Below, one piece after another: positions 1,982 to 49,922 of a DNA stretch of 64,000 nt. The stretch is taken from IMG/VR virus record IMGVR_UViG_3300013094_004547, positions 10,781 through 74,780 of that record. The stretch is one strand, 5' to 3'. The position numbers were made by a program, and so were the translations under genes. The notes beneath the pieces are model-generated. The model was not told the origin of the DNA. It saw nothing but the letters and a program-made list of their open reading frames with translations, and did not search any database. This DNA comes from a virus. Positions within the stretch are counted from its first letter, which is position 1. The number at the start of each line of letters is the position of its first letter.

Positions 1982-4573
1982 CTAGTGGCGCGTGGGGCCT
2001 TGCGGCATCAGCGTGAGCCGCATCGTGCCGGCGAGGGTGCGCTGTCCTAAGCGCCGGCCTTGGAGGGTGAGGGTGACGGTCCGGATGCCCCGGAGCTGCA
2101 GGGCTCCCGCGTAGGGATCCCCGGCCTGGAAGGCGGCGGTGAGCGCGGCCTGCGCGGCGAGTTGCGCCGCGGCCACGCCGCTGATGGTGGCCGCCGCGGT
2201 TTGGTCGAGCTGCGCCGTGAAGGCGAGGCTCGGCCCGGACACGCCGGTCGTCGCGGCAGCAAAGGTGGGGTCGACGGGCAGGTTCAGCGTGCCCGTGACG
2301 ATCAGGCCGCCGCTCGCCAGCACCCGGGTCTGGGCCTGGAAGGTCGTCCCGGCCACGGCGTTCAGGACCGCGTCGGCGCTCTGGCTCGCCGCCCCGGCCA
2401 GCGCGATCGCCGCGTTCGCCCCGAGCGCGCCGGACGCCTGTTCGCCAACTGAGGCCGCGAGGGCCGCCAGGGCGGCCTGCCCGCTCTGCGCGGCGGCCGC
2501 CTGCAGCGCCGACGCCGCGAGCACGACCGCAGAGGCGAAGGATTGCCCACCAACGCTGGCGCCCGCGCCAAGGGCCTCGCCGAGCGCCGCGGCCGCGACC
2601 GCCACGGCCTGCACCTGCGCGCCCTGGCCTTCGGCTTGGCCCACCGCCACCGCGCCGGCGTAAAGGCCCGCCGCCGCACCCGAGAGACCGAGCGCCGCGG
2701 GCAGCGGAGCGGATGCGCTCGCCTGGCCCGTCCCGGCCGCGGCCGCGAGCACCTGGGCGGTCAGCGCGATCGCCGCCGCGTAGGCCTGCGCGCCACCGGT
2801 GCCGGCGCCGGTGCCCAGGGCCTCGCCGAGCGCCGTGGCGGCGATCATCAGGGCCTGCGACCGGGCGGCGAGCGCGTCGGCCTGCGCCAGACCCACGGCG
2901 CCAGCGTAGGAGCCGGTGGCCGCGCCGGACTGGCCCGCCACCGCCGGCAGGGCGAGCGCAGCCGCGGCCGCGGCCGTCCCAGATGCCGCGGCGAGCGCCT
3001 GGCCCGCGAGGATGACCGCCGCGGCATAGGCCTGCGTGCCGCCCGGGCTTGCGGACGACCCGACGGCCTTCGCCAGCGCCGCGGCGGCGGCTAGGATCGC
3101 GGAGCTGCCGGCCGACTGGGCCAGCGCGTGGGTGAGACCCATCGGCACCTGCGCGGCGGTCTGTGCGGCGCTTGATGCCGCGGGCACGGTGGCCAGGTTC
3201 GCGGCGCCAGTCGTCGCGGTCGTAGCGGAGCCCGACGCCGTAGTTACGGTGGCGAGGTTCGTCGCACCGGTCGTCACTGCCTGCCCGGCCGATGTCGCGA
3301 CCGCCGAGGCGGCGAGCGCCATGGCCGAGGCGTAGGCCGCCCCGCCCGTGCCGGACGCGGCGGCGAGCGCCATCATCAGCGCGGCGCCCTGCGCGGCCGT
3401 GAGCGCACCGGTGTCGGTCAGGCCGGCGCCCTGAGCCAGCGCGAGCGCCGAGGCCGCGGTCAGGCCGCCCGATGCCGCCTCACCTGCGAGCGCCGCGAGC
3501 GTGAGCGTGGTCGATGCCGCGACCTTCGCCGAGCCCGTCAGGCCCGCGATCTCGGCGAGCGCCGCCGTGGCCGCCACGCGGACGGAGGGGGAACTGGCGA
3601 GCACGGCCGCCGCAGCAAGCGGGATCTGTGCGCCCGCCACGGCTGCGCCCGACGCCGTCGCCGAGCCGATAGCTGCGAGGGAGGCCGCGCTCACCCCGGA
3701 GAGAAGCGCCGCGTTCAAATGGGCCGGGGTGGCGGCGAGCGCGATGCTGGAGGCGTAGACCGCCCCGCCCGTCGAAACGGTCGGGGCGGCGGCCTTGTAT
3801 GGGTTGTCCGAGCTGATTTTCGCTTGCGTGCCCTGCCGCCAGTGCAGGATGCTCTCAAGCTGAAATTTCTCATCGGCCGTCAGAACTCGGTCCACGACGC
3901 CGATGGCGCCGGCCGAACACTTGGCCGCGTTGCAGTAGTTGTTGATCGTGTAGAAGACGCGGCCGCCCGTCGATCCGATCGAGGATTTCGTGCCGGTGCC
4001 GCTCGCCTCGACCACGCCGTTGACGCGCAGCTCGACCGCCACGCTGCCGGCCGTCGTATCGAGGGTCAGGATCGCGAGGCTCGGCCCCGCCGTGACGTCG
4101 CTCGTCCCGTGATAGCTGCCGGAGCCGCCCGCCCGGTCGGTGTACCACCAGTGCGGGCCGTCGTTGTTCCAACCGAACAGGTTCTCGACGCCGTCGCCGC
4201 CCTGGCCCCAGGACAGCAGGACCGAGTTGCCGCCGCTGTCGGGGGCGGCCTGGATGAGCGCGAAGATCGTCACGTCGCTCTGGCCGGTGGGCAGGCCTGA
4301 GACGTTCGAGAGATCGAGAAACTGCCCGCCATTCGTGACGACCGCGGGATTGCCGTTGAGGCCGGCCGTCGAATAGCTCGGCTGGTTTCCGGCGACCGGC
4401 ATCGAGGCGACGACGGGCGCGCCGCCGGGGCGCGCACCGCCGGCGACGGACTCGTCGCTCCACTGCGAGATCGAGCCGGCCGATTGCGTGATGGTGGATG
4501 CGTCGAACGGATCGTAGAACGCCGACAGGTCCGCCCCGAGGAGATCGCAGACCGTCTTGAGCCGCGCGCCCAT
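1982..4573 (-). CDS. Fibre-like protein: N-terminal LamG/ConA-like lectin domain plus about 600 aa Ala-rich repeat stalk
   Basis: YDPFDASTITQSAGSISQWSD, GLNGNPAV, LRVNG, DRVLTADE..LESIL motifs, then Ala/Gly/Ser repeats. Confidence 0.75.
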   Translation of the reverse strand: MGARLKTVCDLLGADLSAFYDPFDASTITQSAGSISQWSDESVAGGARPGGAPVVASMPVAGNQPSYSTAGLNGNPAVVTNGGQFLDLSNVSGLPTGQSDVTIFALIQAAPDSGGNSVLLSWGQGGDGVENLFGWNNDGPHWWYTDRAGGSGSYHGTSDVTAGPSLAILTLDTTAGSVAVELRVNGVVEASGTGTKSSIGSTGGRVFYTINNYCNAAKCSAGAIGVVDRVLTADEKFQLESILHWRQGTQAKISSDNPYKAAAPTVSTGGAVYASSIALAATPAHLNAALLSGVSAASLAAIGSATASGAAVAGAQIPLAAAAVLASSPSVRVAATAALAEIAGLTGSAKVAASTTLTLAALAGEAASGGLTAASALALAQGAGLTDTGALTAAQGAALMMALAAASGTGGAAYASAMALAASAVATSAGQAVTTGATNLATVTTASGSATTATTGAANLATVPAASSAAQTAAQVPMGLTHALAQSAGSSAILAAAAALAKAVGSSASPGGTQAYAAAVILAGQALAAASGTAAAAAALALPAVAGQSGAATGSYAGAVGLAQADALAARSQALMIAATALGEALGTGAGTGGAQAYAAAIALTAQVLAAAAGTGQASASAPLPAALGLSGAAAGLYAGAVAVGQAEGQGAQVQAVAVAAAALGEALGAGASVGGQSFASAVVLAASALQAAAAQSGQAALAALAASVGEQASGALGANAAIALAGAASQSADAVLNAVAGTTFQAQTRVLASGGLIVTGTLNLPVDPTFAAATTGVSGPSLAFTAQLDQTAAATISGVAAAQLAAQAALTAAFQAGDPYAGALQLRGIRTVTLTLQGRRLGQRTLAGTMRLTLMPQGPTRH

Positions 4574-46857: not shown

Positions 46858-47055
46858 TCAGGCTCCGGGTGGTGGGTGGAGGTCGGTGTGCTGGCCGCGC
46901 GACCAGAGGCGCGGGTCCCATTCCCGGGCTCGCGTCTGCAGGCGGCGGGAGCAGGCCAGGATCGGCGTCGCGATCCAGCCGATCGCCAGGAACGGCACGG
47001 CCAAAGCCTGAAGGCACGCGGCGAGCCCGCGTAGGACGAAGGCGGCTGCGATCAT
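46858..47055 (-). CDS. Small hydrophobic protein
   Basis: ATGA-coupled. Confidence 0.5.
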   Translation of the reverse strand: MIAAAFVLRGLAACLQALAVPFLAIGWIATPILACSRRLQTRAREWDPRLWSRGQHTDLHPPPGA

Positions 47056-47480
47056 CGCCCGCCCCAGACTTCAGCGAGCTGCTGCCGGATCGTGGCTGCC
47101 TGACGCTCCAAGCGCGCCTGCCGGCAGACGCGCGCCGCCTCCTGCAGGGAGGCCGGCGACGCGTCCGGATTCACGAACACGAACAGCTCGGGCCCGTAGA
47201 CCTCGATCAGCCGGTGGTACGTGTTGCCCGACGGCGATGACGTACCGGACAGCCACTTCTCGACCGTCTTGGCCGAGATCTGTGTGTCTGCCTCGATGCA
47301 GGCGGCGGTCTTCTGCGGGTGGATCGTCCGCAGGAACTCGGCGATGCGCGCGCCGAAAATCTGGGGTTCGAGTACCCCAAGGTTTCGGAAGACTCCCTCA
47401 GATCTTCGCACGGGATTCCTCGATGCTGTGGGCATCGAGGAGCGGCCAATCGGGCCGGTCGGAAAAAGCGAGGCGGTCAT
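47052..47480 (-). CDS. HTH protein in CII-like position
   Basis: FLR..HP.KTA..I..TV.KWL..S.P..LI..YGPEL. Confidence 0.7.
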   Translation of the reverse strand: MTASLFPTGPIGRSSMPTASRNPVRRSEGVFRNLGVLEPQIFGARIAEFLRTIHPQKTAACIEADTQISAKTVEKWLSGTSSPSGNTYHRLIEVYGPELFVFVNPDASPASLQEAARVCRQARLERQAATIRQQLAEVWGGR

Positions 47481-47791
47481 TGATCGTCCCTCGCGAGGAG
47501 GTCGACGGAACGATGATCGAGGTCACGCGCCAGCGCTTGGAGGCTGATGGGCGCGTGAGACACGGCAGGGGCGGTCCGCGTGATGCGGGCCGCCTCGACG
47601 TTTGGGAGCTGGGCTGCGGATGCCCAGTGCAGCAGGAAGAAGCCGGTCCCCGCCACCAGCAGCCATGCGGCTATGCGGGCGCACGGCTGGCCGACAGCGC
47701 GATCCGCACGGTTGATATGGCCAAGCTGCGCGAACAGCGCGGCCCAGACGGCAGCCTCGACGCACAGGATCGGCGAGAGCCAACCGGGCAT
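47477..47791 (-). CDS. Two-TM membrane protein
   Basis: GGGAGG SD 6 nt before the ATG; two hydrophobic segments. Confidence 0.6.
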   Translation of the reverse strand: MPGWLSPILCVEAAVWAALFAQLGHINRADRAVGQPCARIAAWLLVAGTGFFLLHWASAAQLPNVEAARITRTAPAVSHAPISLQALARDLDHRSVDLLARDDQ

Positions 47792-47808
47792 CAGGCGCCT
47801 CCCGCGGT

Positions 47809-47881
47809 TGGCACCGCTGGGAGGAGACGAGCCCCCGGAGCTTGGTTTTGGAGACCGGCCCGCGCCCACACGCTCAGCAAT
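47809..47881 (-). ncRNA. tRNA-Trp-like element (73 nt, CCA anticodon, encoded 3' CCA; degenerate)
   Basis: Acceptor ATTGCTG/CAGCGGT plus G-CCA; GGT-CTCCAAA-ACC anticodon arm; GGGGG-CTCGTCT-CCTCC T-arm; shortened D-arm. Confidence 0.65.
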
Positions 47882-48163
47882 TGGGTGCTGTCTCTCCAGC
47901 TGTCACCGCTCATAGGTTGCTTCGGCTGCGGTTCCCGGCAGTGGGCCGTACTCCCACTCTCAGACGCCCCATCGGGCGAATTACTGCCCGGCACGAAGCC
48001 GGGACCGGAGGCCGAGGTCAGGCCGTCGCCATCACCCGTCGCTTCCGGCACGACCTTCTCAACGGACTGGCTCGGAAGGGCCGTCGCCCAGTCCCCACCG
48101 TCGCCCTGGTCGCCTCGGGCCGCTCTTGCCGCGCCATCGCGCGTATCTGGTTCTTCGTCCTCC

Positions 48164-48227
48164 AAAGGCGGCCGGAGCCCGAAGGCCCCGGCCAAGTCCA
48201 GGGAGGAAACGCCCACCATGGGGCATC
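48164..48227 (-). ncRNA. MmgR/suhB (alpha-r8)-like small RNA
   Basis: GATGCCC..GGGCGTT stem, TTTCCTCCCT-GGACTTGG core, C-UUCG-G capped hairpin. Confidence 0.7.
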
Positions 48228-48369
48228 TCCGGTCGGCGGACGCCATACCGACGGCCGGAGCTGGGGCGACGCGCTTGCCGGAGGCTCGCGATGCGTCGAA
48301 GCTGTGAGGATGGAGAGTCGGGTTGGGGCCCGACTCTCCTCGCGACCACCCATGCAGTTGGAGGCGACC

Positions 48370-48615
48370 ATGAGCGACCGCGATCTGCGGGCGAGGATCG
48401 ACGACTTGGAGGCCGAGATGATCGCACAGCGGTTCGCCGTGCACGCGATCATCGACAGCCTCAGGGCCATGCCGGACGATCAGCAGTTCAAGGACATCCA
48501 CTACCACGCGATGGGCAATCTGGCCGTCTCGCTGGCAGACAAGCCGATCTGGCCGGCGGCCAAGAAGGCCTTGGAGCTGATCTTCAGAGAAGCGATCCCC
48601 GACGAAAACCATTAG
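48370..48615 (+). CDS. Small antisense accessory protein
   Basis: GGAGG RBS; GC3 bias. Confidence 0.7.
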   Translation: MSDRDLRARIDDLEAEMIAQRFAVHAIIDSLRAMPDDQQFKDIHYHAMGNLAVSLADKPIWPAAKKALELIFREAIPDENH

Positions 48616-48917
48616 GCCGCCCCCGCCTTTGCTTCGGCCAAGAGCTGGCAGAGGCGGTTATTCAGCGCCTGTGCCTCGTCGAGTGTGAGGGAGAGGCGGC
48701 GCCACGAGTTCTCCACGGGAGCGTGGCCCGTGCGGAAGGCCGTCAGCTCGTGCTCCATCACCGTGATGCGACGGGCATAGGGGTCGTAGGTCGCCTCGAT
48801 CCACGACTCGCAATCGGTCACGCTGGTGGTGCGGAAGCGTCGGCGAAAGCCGGTGGCCGTGGCCTCGTGGTCAAGGCATTCGACGCGCTCGTCGCGGATG
48901 AGGTCGGAGCCGGACAT
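48612..48917 (-). CDS. Hypothetical early protein
   Basis: TGATG-coupled to cro. Confidence 0.65.
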   Translation of the reverse strand: MSGSDLIRDERVECLDHEATATGFRRRFRTTSVTDCESWIEATYDPYARRITVMEHELTAFRTGHAPVENSWRRLSLTLDEAQALNNRLCQLLAEAKAGAA

Positions 48918-49135
48918 CAGGCAGCAGCCCCCTCGGTGGGGGCGGCGTCGCGAACCCAGTCACGAAGGCCAACCGAGCCCTGGGTGACTTCTTCGATGCG
49001 GATGGCGACTTCGATCGAGGGGCCACGCTCTCCGTACTTCAGCTTCCGAATGCCATGCGCAGTGATCCTGCCGACGCGCTTCGCCATGGCGAAGTCGTCG
49101 AGGTTCTCGGAGCGCATGTAGTCGATGAGCCTCAT
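48917..49135 (-). CDS. cro: Cro-like HTH regulator
   Basis: MRLIDYM, GERGPS..A.RIEEVT.G.V..DW; divergent from cI. Confidence 0.85.
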   Translation of the reverse strand: MRLIDYMRSENLDDFAMAKRVGRITAHGIRKLKYGERGPSIEVAIRIEEVTQGSVGLRDWVRDAAPTEGAAA

Positions 49136-49143
49136 ACCCCACA

Positions 49144-49230
49144 GAATTGCCCTCAAAGGGAAAGAACGTCAACCCCTACAAGGGGAAGGACGCGCGGCGC
49201 TTAGATGCTCCATCAATCCCCTTATGGGGA
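49144..49230. promoter_or_regulatory. OR region: three CCC(C)T-N3-(A/G)GGG operators plus pR
   Basis: CCCTCAAAGGG 49150-60, CCCCTACAAGGGG 49173-85, TCCCCTTATGGGGA 49217-30; TTGACG -35 on minus at 49167-72. Confidence 0.8.
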
Positions 49231-49922
49231 ACAGCTTACGAGCGCTGCGAACAAAGCGAGGCTGGACGCACGATCAGGCGGCGTCCGAGATGGGTGTTTC
49301 GCGCGGCCAGTTCATTAAGCTTGAGCGCGGGGAGCGGGGGCTGACCGAGCGAACAATTGCGCTCGCGGCCAAGGCGTTTGGCGTGCCTAGGGCCGAAGTC
49401 ATCGAAGACGGCATAGCAGGGGACGTTCGGACGGTAACGCCTGCGGCGCCGCCGACATCCAACGTGCGTATATCGGACAGCGATGTTGGCTTGAGTCTCG
49501 CCAAACTAAAGGGGCCACGCGACGTACCGGTCCTCGGTACCGGTGTCTGCGGGGATGATGGCGACTTCCGCTTCAACGGCGAGACGATCGATTACGCGCC
49601 GCGGCCGCCCGGCATCGAGGGCAAGAAGGATGTGTTCGTCGTTTACGTCGTCGGCGACAGCATGGCCGAGCGCTACGAGGACGGCGATCCGCTCTACGTC
49701 GACCCTCACCGCCGCCCGAAGCCGCGGGACATCGTCATCGTCGAGCTGAAGGCGCCGAGCGATGGCGAGCCAGGCAGCGCATTCGTGAAGCGTCTCGTGC
49801 GCCGGGCCGGCGGCAAGATCGTCGTTGAGCAGTTCAACCCGCCCAAGGAGCTCGTCTTCGATGAGGATGAGGTGGCGCGGCTGCACCGTGTCATACCATG
49901 GATCGAGCTGATCGGGATGTGA
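49224..49922 (+). CDS. cI: CI-like repressor (XRE HTH plus S24 autoprotease)
   Basis: LRALR..RGWT..KLERGER.L; VCG cleavage site; VGDSM; FVKRL. Confidence 0.93.
   Translation: MGNSLRALRTKRGWTHDQAASEMGVSRGQFIKLERGERGLTERTIALAAKAFGVPRAEVIEDGIAGDVRTVTPAAPPTSNVRISDSDVGLSLAKLKGPRDVPVLGTGVCGDDGDFRFNGETIDYAPRPPGIEGKKDVFVVYVVGDSMAERYEDGDPLYVDPHRRPKPRDIVIVELKAPSDGEPGSAFVKRLVRRAGGKIVVEQFNPPKELVFDEDEVARLHRVIPWIELIGM

Follow-up and report, generated by a model that had tools for sequence, protein, structure and literature searches.

A diverged phage tRNA-Trp gene copy in an early operon and a lineage-specific hairpin between its 3' strand and the Shine-Dalgarno sequence of the next reading frame

The element and its immediate surroundings

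The DNA analysed here is a 64-kb part (hereafter the window) of IMG/VR virus record IMGVR_UViG_3300013094_004547, which is 74.8 kb long and has a CheckV completeness of 95%. On the minus strand of the window, positions 47881-47809 form a 73-nt cloverleaf resembling a tRNA-Trp, with the anticodon CCA, the discriminator base G73 and an encoded CCA end. This tRNA-like element lies in the early operon of a temperate phage, on the cro side. A first-pass annotation, made from the letters alone, had described the element as a tRNA-Trp mimic that can alternate with a hairpin hiding the Shine-Dalgarno (SD) sequence of the next gene. Our results place it not as a purpose-built mimic but as a diverged copy within a family of genuine phage tRNA-Trp genes and suggest that it is degenerating, with its 3' half now probably acting as an anti-SD strand for a small open reading frame (ORF). 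The features on which the argument depends are the following.

47809-47881, minus strand: diverged, probably decaying copy of a compact tRNA-Trp(CCA) gene, recognised by homology, covariance model and covariation.
47798-47824, minus strand: 11-bp hairpin over the SD, present in the minimum free energy (MFE) structures of the 121-nt and 112-nt contexts.
47477-47791, minus strand: ORF of 104 amino acids (aa) whose SD is buried; its stop codon TGA overlaps the next ATG (ATGA).
47595-47808, minus strand: lineage-specific segment of about 214 nt, comprising the SD arm, the start codon and the part encoding two transmembrane (TM) segments; no counterpart in the related prophage of genome G043.
47481-47600, minus strand: conserved leader upstream of the 142-aa gene, also present in loci L002, L006-L008, L010 and L011, at about 3880-4004 there.
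47052-47480, minus strand: 142-aa early gene, used as a marker for locating related prophages.

Structure and detection of the tRNA-like element

Every statement that the first-pass annotation made about the sequence of the cloverleaf, including the encoded CCA, G73 and the loop CUCCAAA, was correct, and the shrunken D arm and non-canonical T-loop that it described are both present. The acceptor stem (AUUGCUG/CAGCGGU) has 7 bp, all of them standard and two of them G.U, and includes the pair A1-U72, while the anticodon loop CUCCAAA is identical to that of the host tRNA-Trp. The D arm is compact, with a single linker nucleotide (A8), a 4-bp stem and a 4-nt loop (GYGG), and the anticodon stem is extended; both are kept in the window, with a C12U change that gives a G.U pair and a C.A mismatch at 25:39. 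The T-loop reads CUCGUCU against UUCGACU, with C54 at 47831 and U58 at 47827, and departs from the canonical pattern UUCGAYU.

ARAGORN called no tRNA gene in the whole window, where the first-pass annotation had expected a pseudo-tRNA score. Rfam likewise gave no tRNA at the gathering score and no match of the tRNA clan at E<=10 within 47300-48700. Taken in isolation, the 73 nt showed no folding advantage over shuffled sequence (z +1.74), and their MFE structure was not the cloverleaf. A reading of the locus as an attP site or a 3' fragment of a tRNA was rejected, because the full 73 nt, including the 5' acceptor strand, are present and intact copies occupy the same early-operon position in relatives.

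Homologues of the element

The 142-aa marker protein has homologues at 11 loci (L002-L012) in Methylobacterium, Methylorubrum and Hansschlegelia genomes, and the phage was assigned to Methylobacterium because these homologues sit there. None of the 11 loci contains the sequence 47601-47930. A search of 146 Methylobacterium genomes with 47600-47960 returned two matches, both of which end exactly at the CCA: one in G043 (47960-47809, 88% identity) and one in G023 (47876-47809, 78% identity). ARAGORN called both as tRNA-Trp(CCA) genes of 73 nt with the anticodon at position 31. G043 carries a syntenic prophage (locus L023; blastn blocks 46863-47594 and 47809-48268), and in G023 the tRNA starts 25 nt past the stop codon of a cro-like gene. 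The host tRNA-Trp is a normal 77-nt tRNA at a separate locus, scoring 67.5 bits on RF00005.

A search for the D-arm/anticodon-arm pattern revealed 14 metagenomic loci and one further viral locus. ARAGORN calls a tRNA-Trp at most of the metagenomic sites, most of which lie inside arrays of 7-29 tRNA genes, and wherever the compact gene is called in an array it is the only tRNA-Trp that ARAGORN lists, as in the 29-tRNA array of L037. The phages that carry such arrays are large. Among cultured phages, the same compact type occurs in Streptomyces phage phiHau3 (JX182369), where it is annotated 'tRNA-Trp', and in Bradyrhizobium phage BDU-MI-1 (KY940711), where it is annotated 'tRNA-Pseudo-CCA'. A covariance-model search added three more divergent variants of 71-75 nt in other Methylobacterium genomes, one of which adjoins a tRNA-Met. 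Other searches were negative: blastn of the phage collection with 47000-49200 gave no match, a scan of viral contigs for the exact tRNA 3' end CTCCTCCCAGCGGTGCCA found none, and 401 genomes searched with 47770-47900 yielded only short chance-like matches that were unrelated on inspection.

We also observed a partial copy at 2217-2288 (minus strand) of locus L040, which matches the compact pattern in its 5' half alone, through the D and anticodon arms, and then continues as unrelated sequence. ARAGORN-type calls place another, separate tRNA-Trp some 330 nt from it. The partial copy may be a recombination or att remnant.

The compact tRNA-Trp family

The compact tRNA-Trp(CCA) family was recognised at loci L021, L022, L025, L033-L046, L062, L063, L066 and L068. 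Its architecture consists of a 7-bp acceptor stem, the single linker A8, a 4-bp D stem with a 3-4-nt loop, an extended, bulged and covarying anticodon stem, a near-absent variable loop and a canonical T arm. In 16 members, 97% of the cells were paired and 12-13 pairs showed double changes, which affected 6 of the 7 acceptor pairs, 3-4 anticodon-stem pairs and 3 of the 5 T-stem pairs. Shuffling never reached the observed values (0/500), and slid controls collapsed. Three further pairs are kept, namely 21:45, 22:44 and 23:43, the last being CG in 12 members, GC in 2 and UA in 2. The D stem covaries too, since GCGC/GCGC becomes GCCA/UGGU in the Bradyrhizobium copy, in register 9-12/17-20. Judged from these alignments, the compact tRNA-Trp family is a structured and selected RNA.

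A sequence-plus-structure covariance model of the family (R1, from alignment A4) was built without the window copy. Applied to the window, it gave 79.0 bits (E 7.7e-19) over model positions 1-73, exactly at 47809-47881 on the minus strand. Members used for training scored 89-101 bits and members outside the training set 73-78, while the host tRNA-Trp reached 41.7 bits and other tRNAs remained below 37. On this score, the window element belongs to the compact tRNA-Trp(CCA) family of phages, in which a shrunken D arm is normal and hence no sign of mimicry.

The compact architecture is widespread in phages of Alphaproteobacteria and Streptomyces, and its core is reminiscent of the compact cores of tRNA-Pyl and tRNA-Sec. 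ARAGORN recognises the intact relatives, which in Rfam score only 28-33 bits, as tRNA-Sec-like. We did not find this tRNA-Trp architecture described in the limited literature searched.

Divergence of the window copy

The window copy differs from its nearest relative, that of G043, at 6 of 73 nt, and none of the differences is compensatory. Three G-C pairs have become G.U through C3U, C12U and C44U, the C.A mismatch in the anticodon stem comes from U25C, and T54C and A58U alter conserved positions of the T-loop. In the canonical tRNA fold, T54 and A58 form the reverse-Hoogsteen pair of this loop. T54 does not vary among the 15 relatives of alignment A2, and A58 hardly does; in A4, both are invariant. 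At least 4 of the 6 arose in the lineage of the window copy and fall in columns where the other 15 members show little or no variation; no derived change of this kind is found in G043. All six differences weaken helices or alter T54/A58. The cloverleaf energy is -23.4 kcal/mol in the window vs. -34.4 in G043, about 11 kcal/mol weaker, and the cloverleaf is the MFE structure in G043 but not in the window copy.

A minor 151-nt contig of run X2, from the same lake metagenome, covers 47789-47897 with 10 differences, three of which are 47827 A>T, 47831 G>A and 47839 A>G on the plus strand. The X2 minor variant thus has the canonical T54/A58 state. The non-canonical T-loop, which had been counted among the features of a mimic, is a defect derived in the window lineage, the X2 variant and the relatives being canonical. 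The window copy looks decayed, and we infer from these positions a probable loss of tRNA function.

This decay might be more apparent than real if the element were still a working phage tRNA-Trp and the SD hairpin an incidental by-product of an insertion junction, with little regulatory effect. The model score of 79 bits is close to that of genuine members held out of training (73-78), the identity-relevant A1-U72, G73, CCA and anticodon are intact, a mismatch at pair 25:39 occurs in three further members of the family, and the order of transcription favours folding of the cloverleaf first. However, T54, which is invariant, and A58, which is nearly so, have both changed, every one of the six changes relative to G043 is destabilising, the cloverleaf is no longer the MFE structure and both ARAGORN and Rfam are negative. 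We therefore regard a working tRNA as improbable.

A hairpin between the tRNA 3' strand and the SD sequence

The 5' arm of the hairpin, CCUCCC(A)GCGGU at 47824-47813, is the T-stem plus acceptor 3' strand of the tRNA. It is followed by the loop GCCA (47812-47809) and by the 3' arm ACCGCGGGAGG (47808-47798), which contains the SD GGGAGG (47803-47798); a 6-nt spacer then leads to the ATG at 47791-47789. As had been proposed, the 11-bp hairpin buries the GGGAGG of the gene that starts at 47791, and the cloverleaf and the hairpin are mutually exclusive because the hairpin uses the 3' strands of the T-stem and the acceptor stem.

The 29-nt hairpin has a predicted energy of -20.7 kcal/mol, which falls within the top 0.066% of 18,278 windows of the same length on both strands of the GC-rich 64-kb window. 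In the 112-nt context, the MFE was -54.6 kcal/mol with the hairpin vs. -41.2 when the cloverleaf was enforced, a difference of 13.4 kcal/mol, and the SD bases of the 104-aa ORF were paired with a predicted probability of >0.98. Because any SD placed beside a T stem containing CCUCC gains 5-6 bp for free, a null set was built in which 138 real SD-bearing 17-nt upstream regions from the phage and its relatives were joined to the tRNA end. The mean of this set was -10.7 kcal/mol, and only the native region reached -20.7, more stable than all 137 others.

The 5' arm and loop of the hairpin (16 nt) are identical to those in G043. The SD arm is absent from L002-L012, from G043 and G023, and from the loci of small-ORF homologues, so that the hairpin is, on the loci compared, lineage-specific. 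Of the two folds for which the first-pass annotation had suggested a covariation check, the cloverleaf has covarying stems in the 16 family members; the 3' arm of the SD hairpin has no counterpart in the related loci. We did not find a tRNA 3' strand acting as the anti-SD of the next gene described in the limited literature searched. Two other explanations of the hairpin were rejected: an intrinsic terminator, as no U tract follows it on either strand, and a repeated DNA site (REP, operator or att-like), as the palindrome is unique in the 64-kb window.

The small ORF, the inserted segment and the conserved leader

The N-terminal part of the 104-aa ORF, about 63 codons, encodes a small Trp-rich protein with 2 TM segments and is fused in frame to the conserved leader ORF. 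The same fusion is found in a 104-aa relative (P0002, 70% identity) on a contig of 949 nt; neither P0002 nor the small ORF itself had relatives in scans of viral-contig proteins. Stand-alone homologues of the 2-TM part, of about 58 aa, occur in 34 of the 146 Methylobacterium genomes (e.g. L047-L056), and their upstream regions are unrelated. This 2-TM family has a motif like LSLWAAYWAAxFAQxAHLR...GVGA...ARIAG and matches no Pfam or PHROG family. In the window, the 2-TM part (47600-47791, minus strand) has 4 Trp codons among its first 56 and lies directly behind the tRNA-Trp gene; this is probably a coincidence, because the homologues elsewhere have no such tRNA. In G043, pairwise alignment showed that only 11 nt separate the CCA end of the tRNA from the conserved leader.

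At the DNA level, the leader is 78-82% identical in loci that share no more than about 43% identity in the 142-aa protein. It contains a GGGCGG/CCGCCC hairpin with the start codon in the loop and a CCUC/GAGG hairpin over the SD of the 142-aa gene, the outer pairs of which vary in a compensatory way in G043 and L008. In related loci, the same frame of the leader is read as a short upstream ORF, and in every case its TGA shares bases with the start codon of the 142-aa gene (ATGA). The arrangement resembles a device that couples translation through an upstream ORF. The 142-aa gene is itself preceded by an SD (GAGGGA), located in the small conserved CCUC/GAGG hairpin.

The first-pass annotation had proposed a switch gating the downstream operon. 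The hairpin would directly control only the 104-aa ORF, however; the 142-aa gene has an SD of its own and could be affected only by translational coupling, and gating of the rest of the operon is not plausible. The model amounts to a two-state riboregulator, in which the tRNA fold and the SD hairpin would alternate under a tRNA-binding factor or the processing nucleases (RNase P and 3' trimming), and translation of the small ORF would be switched on, together with the next early gene through the ATGA overlap. In favour of this model, the folds are mutually exclusive and a hairpin of such stability lies well outside chance expectation. RNase P recognises the acceptor/T minihelix, G73 and the CCA, and these determinants are intact. 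The stop codon of the leader overlaps the next ATG in all related loci, and a coupling route therefore exists; in addition, the arrangement is unchanged in two independent runs. On the other hand, the hairpin is favoured by about 13 kcal/mol and the mutations weaken the tRNA fold further, which is the opposite of a balanced switch and looks more like a fixed lock. The SD arm is also absent from all related prophages and small-ORF homologues, and the 142-aa gene does not depend on the lock for an SD. These observations make an alternating regulator unlikely.

A proposed history of the locus

The explanation that we favour, and hold to be somewhat better than even, is that a degenerating phage tRNA-Trp gene has come to provide, with its 3' half, a constitutive anti-SD strand for the small ORF. 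An intact phage tRNA-Trp gene would first have sat in the early operon, as it does in G043 and G023. A small coding segment of about 200 nt for the 2-TM part would then have been inserted between the CCA end of the tRNA and the leader, in the frame of the leader. The junction would have carried, or later evolved, an SD arm perfectly complementary to the T-stem and acceptor 3' strand of the tRNA. Pairing of this arm would compete with folding of the tRNA, and the hairpin would outcompete the cloverleaf. In this state, the SD of the small ORF would be kept paired, which would probably hold back initiation at 47791 constitutively, and the translationally coupled 142-aa gene may be slightly dampened as well. 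The tRNA would have been released from selection and gained the mutations that weaken its fold and alter its T-loop. The order of these steps, with decay after the hairpin, and the translational repression itself are conjectural parts of the scenario.

Several observations weigh against this explanation. First, the acceptor stem, G73, the CCA and the anticodon loop are all intact in the window copy, and three of the stem changes conserve pairing as wobbles. Second, the tRNA has diverged from G043 by 8% (6/73) compared with 13.5% in the flanks, so that relaxed selection can be deduced from the sites that changed and not from the rate of change. Third, by our own count, the probability that T54 and A58 would both be hit among six random changes is about 0.006, which makes selection for a new role, or adaptive remodelling, possible. 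Fourth, the mutated form is unchanged over 47400-48021 in an independent 2025 run (X3), and the mutated sequence is therefore stably maintained. Finally, the cloverleaf may fold, or be processed, co-transcriptionally before the 3' arm of the hairpin has been made, and some tRNA function may survive.

The third of these points also bears on a variant in which the tRNA has been exapted as a translational gate coupled to its own maturation. Here, the 3' strand would lock the SD as long as the early transcript is unprocessed; folding of the tRNA followed by RNase P and 3' processing, or a factor that recognises the tRNA, would free the SD; the small ORF would be turned on, and with it the next early gene through ATGA coupling. 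The double change at T54 and A58 would in that case be adaptive tuning and not decay. We give such a gate a slim chance, and return to a decaying tRNA gene under a fixed hairpin as the more probable history.

Under this preferred history, what appeared to be a tRNA-mimic riboswitch turns out to be mostly ordinary, a phage tRNA gene decaying after a small gene was inserted behind it. What the junction adds is that the CCUCC-containing T-stem strand of a tRNA would supply a ready-made anti-SD, and hence a simple route from a structured-RNA gene to a translational regulator in cis.

Other features of the early region

The remaining features of the early region are listed below.

49125-49922, plus strand: S24/HTH CI-like repressor gene, the first of the early region.
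48917-49156, minus strand: Cro-like HTH gene, divergent from the CI-like repressor gene.
After the Cro-like gene, in the early operon: 101-aa ORF without a match in Pfam or PHROG.
Between the 101-aa ORF and the tRNA-like element: stretch of about 800 nt without a convincing minus-strand gene.
After the tRNA-like element, in this order: the 104-aa ORF, the 142-aa ORF, a TAXI-type binding protein gene and a methyltransferase gene.

Scans of Pfam and PHROG gave no family match for the 104-aa, 142-aa or 101-aa proteins, and the label 'CII-like', given to the 142-aa gene by the first-pass annotation, could not be verified. A possible 81-aa gene at 48370-48615 (plus strand), antisense to the early transcript and located between the 101-aa ORF and the small RNA (sRNA) described next, likewise had no Pfam or PHROG family match.

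An MmgR/suhB-like sRNA (Rfam RF00519) was detected at 48155-48231 (minus strand) with 38.6 bits, the gathering score being 41; its copy in the G043 prophage scores 43.4 bits, above the gathering score. In the sRNA, the anti-SD core UUUCCUCCCU is single-stranded and the terminator is a UUCG hairpin. The core (48170-48222) forms a conserved island with 85-92% identity in 7 of the 11 related prophage loci, with unrelated flanks. In run X3, a high-depth 3.8-kb contig carries a near-copy of this sRNA with a 2-nt deletion, which is probably a gene of the host itself. The sRNA is separated from the tRNA by about 270 nt (47882-48155, minus strand) that are about 93% similar to the G043 prophage over 47929-48130, with no indels, no convincing ORF and several local stems; this part of the early transcript is possibly structured and non-coding.

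Comparison with known systems

P4 CI and P1/P7 C4 immunity RNAs are antisense RNAs processed by RNase P that act in trans on repeated targets. The element resembles them as a small structured RNA of an early transcript that is possibly released by RNase P and that pairs with a ribosome-binding region. It differs in that its only complementary partner is the adjacent SD arm in cis, and it has no sequence or Rfam similarity to them. As a trans-acting RNA, the element would be either an immunity RNA of this type or a decoy for a host anticodon nuclease that targets tRNA-Trp; the first-pass annotation cited the former as a known system and listed a decoy for anticodon nucleases among its suggestions. 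Phage tRNAs have been linked to the evasion of tRNA-targeting defences and can counter them (PMC10264068, PMC11555353), and the element has the anticodon loop of the host tRNA-Trp and lies in the early transcript. However, the 64-kb window holds no complementary target repeats, and only scattered GC-rich complementary matches of 10-12 nt, roughly as many as chance would give. Where family members are intact, they belong to normal sets of decoding tRNAs, the 3' half of the element is predicted to be locked in cis and no nuclease partner was identified. A function in trans is therefore very improbable.

In plant mitochondria, tRNA-like structures known as t-elements lie next to mRNAs and serve as processing signals (PMC1920247). 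The likeness lies in a tRNA-like structure within a polycistronic mRNA that adjoins a coding region and could be cut by tRNA-processing enzymes. The t-elements are organellar and have experimentally mapped ends, whereas the window element derives from a phage tRNA-Trp.

Hairpins that sequester an SD are cis-acting anti-SD translational operators in phage and bacterial mRNAs. The hairpin described here is similar to them in that its 3' arm takes in the entire SD and its very stable local stem sits immediately before the start codon, and is distinct in that the anti-SD strand is the T-stem/acceptor strand of a tRNA and in its restriction to one lineage.

With tRNA pseudogenes and decaying phage tRNAs the element shares uncompensated changes at invariant positions, to which tRNA finders are blind. 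Unlike typical pseudogenes, it has only six changes, its acceptor stem, anticodon loop and CCA are untouched, and its 3' half has a plausible new role in cis.

The element is a damaged member of the tRNA genes encoded by phages. Tracing its homologues exposed a compact tRNA-Trp architecture that is widespread in phages of Alphaproteobacteria and Actinobacteria and is scored poorly by standard tools, and this type merits biochemical attention with respect to charging by tryptophanyl-tRNA synthetase (TrpRS) and resistance to tRNA-targeting defences. Its closest described counterparts are the compact tRNA-Trp genes of phiHau3 and BDU-MI-1, with which it shares the 73-nt architecture, the sequence of the D and anticodon arms, an alignment over the full length, one covariance model and a phage-borne location. 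In contrast to these two, the window copy carries T54C, A58U and weakened stems, and its 3' strand is paired to the SD downstream; in contrast to phage tRNA clusters, it is a single gene in the early operon of a temperate phage.

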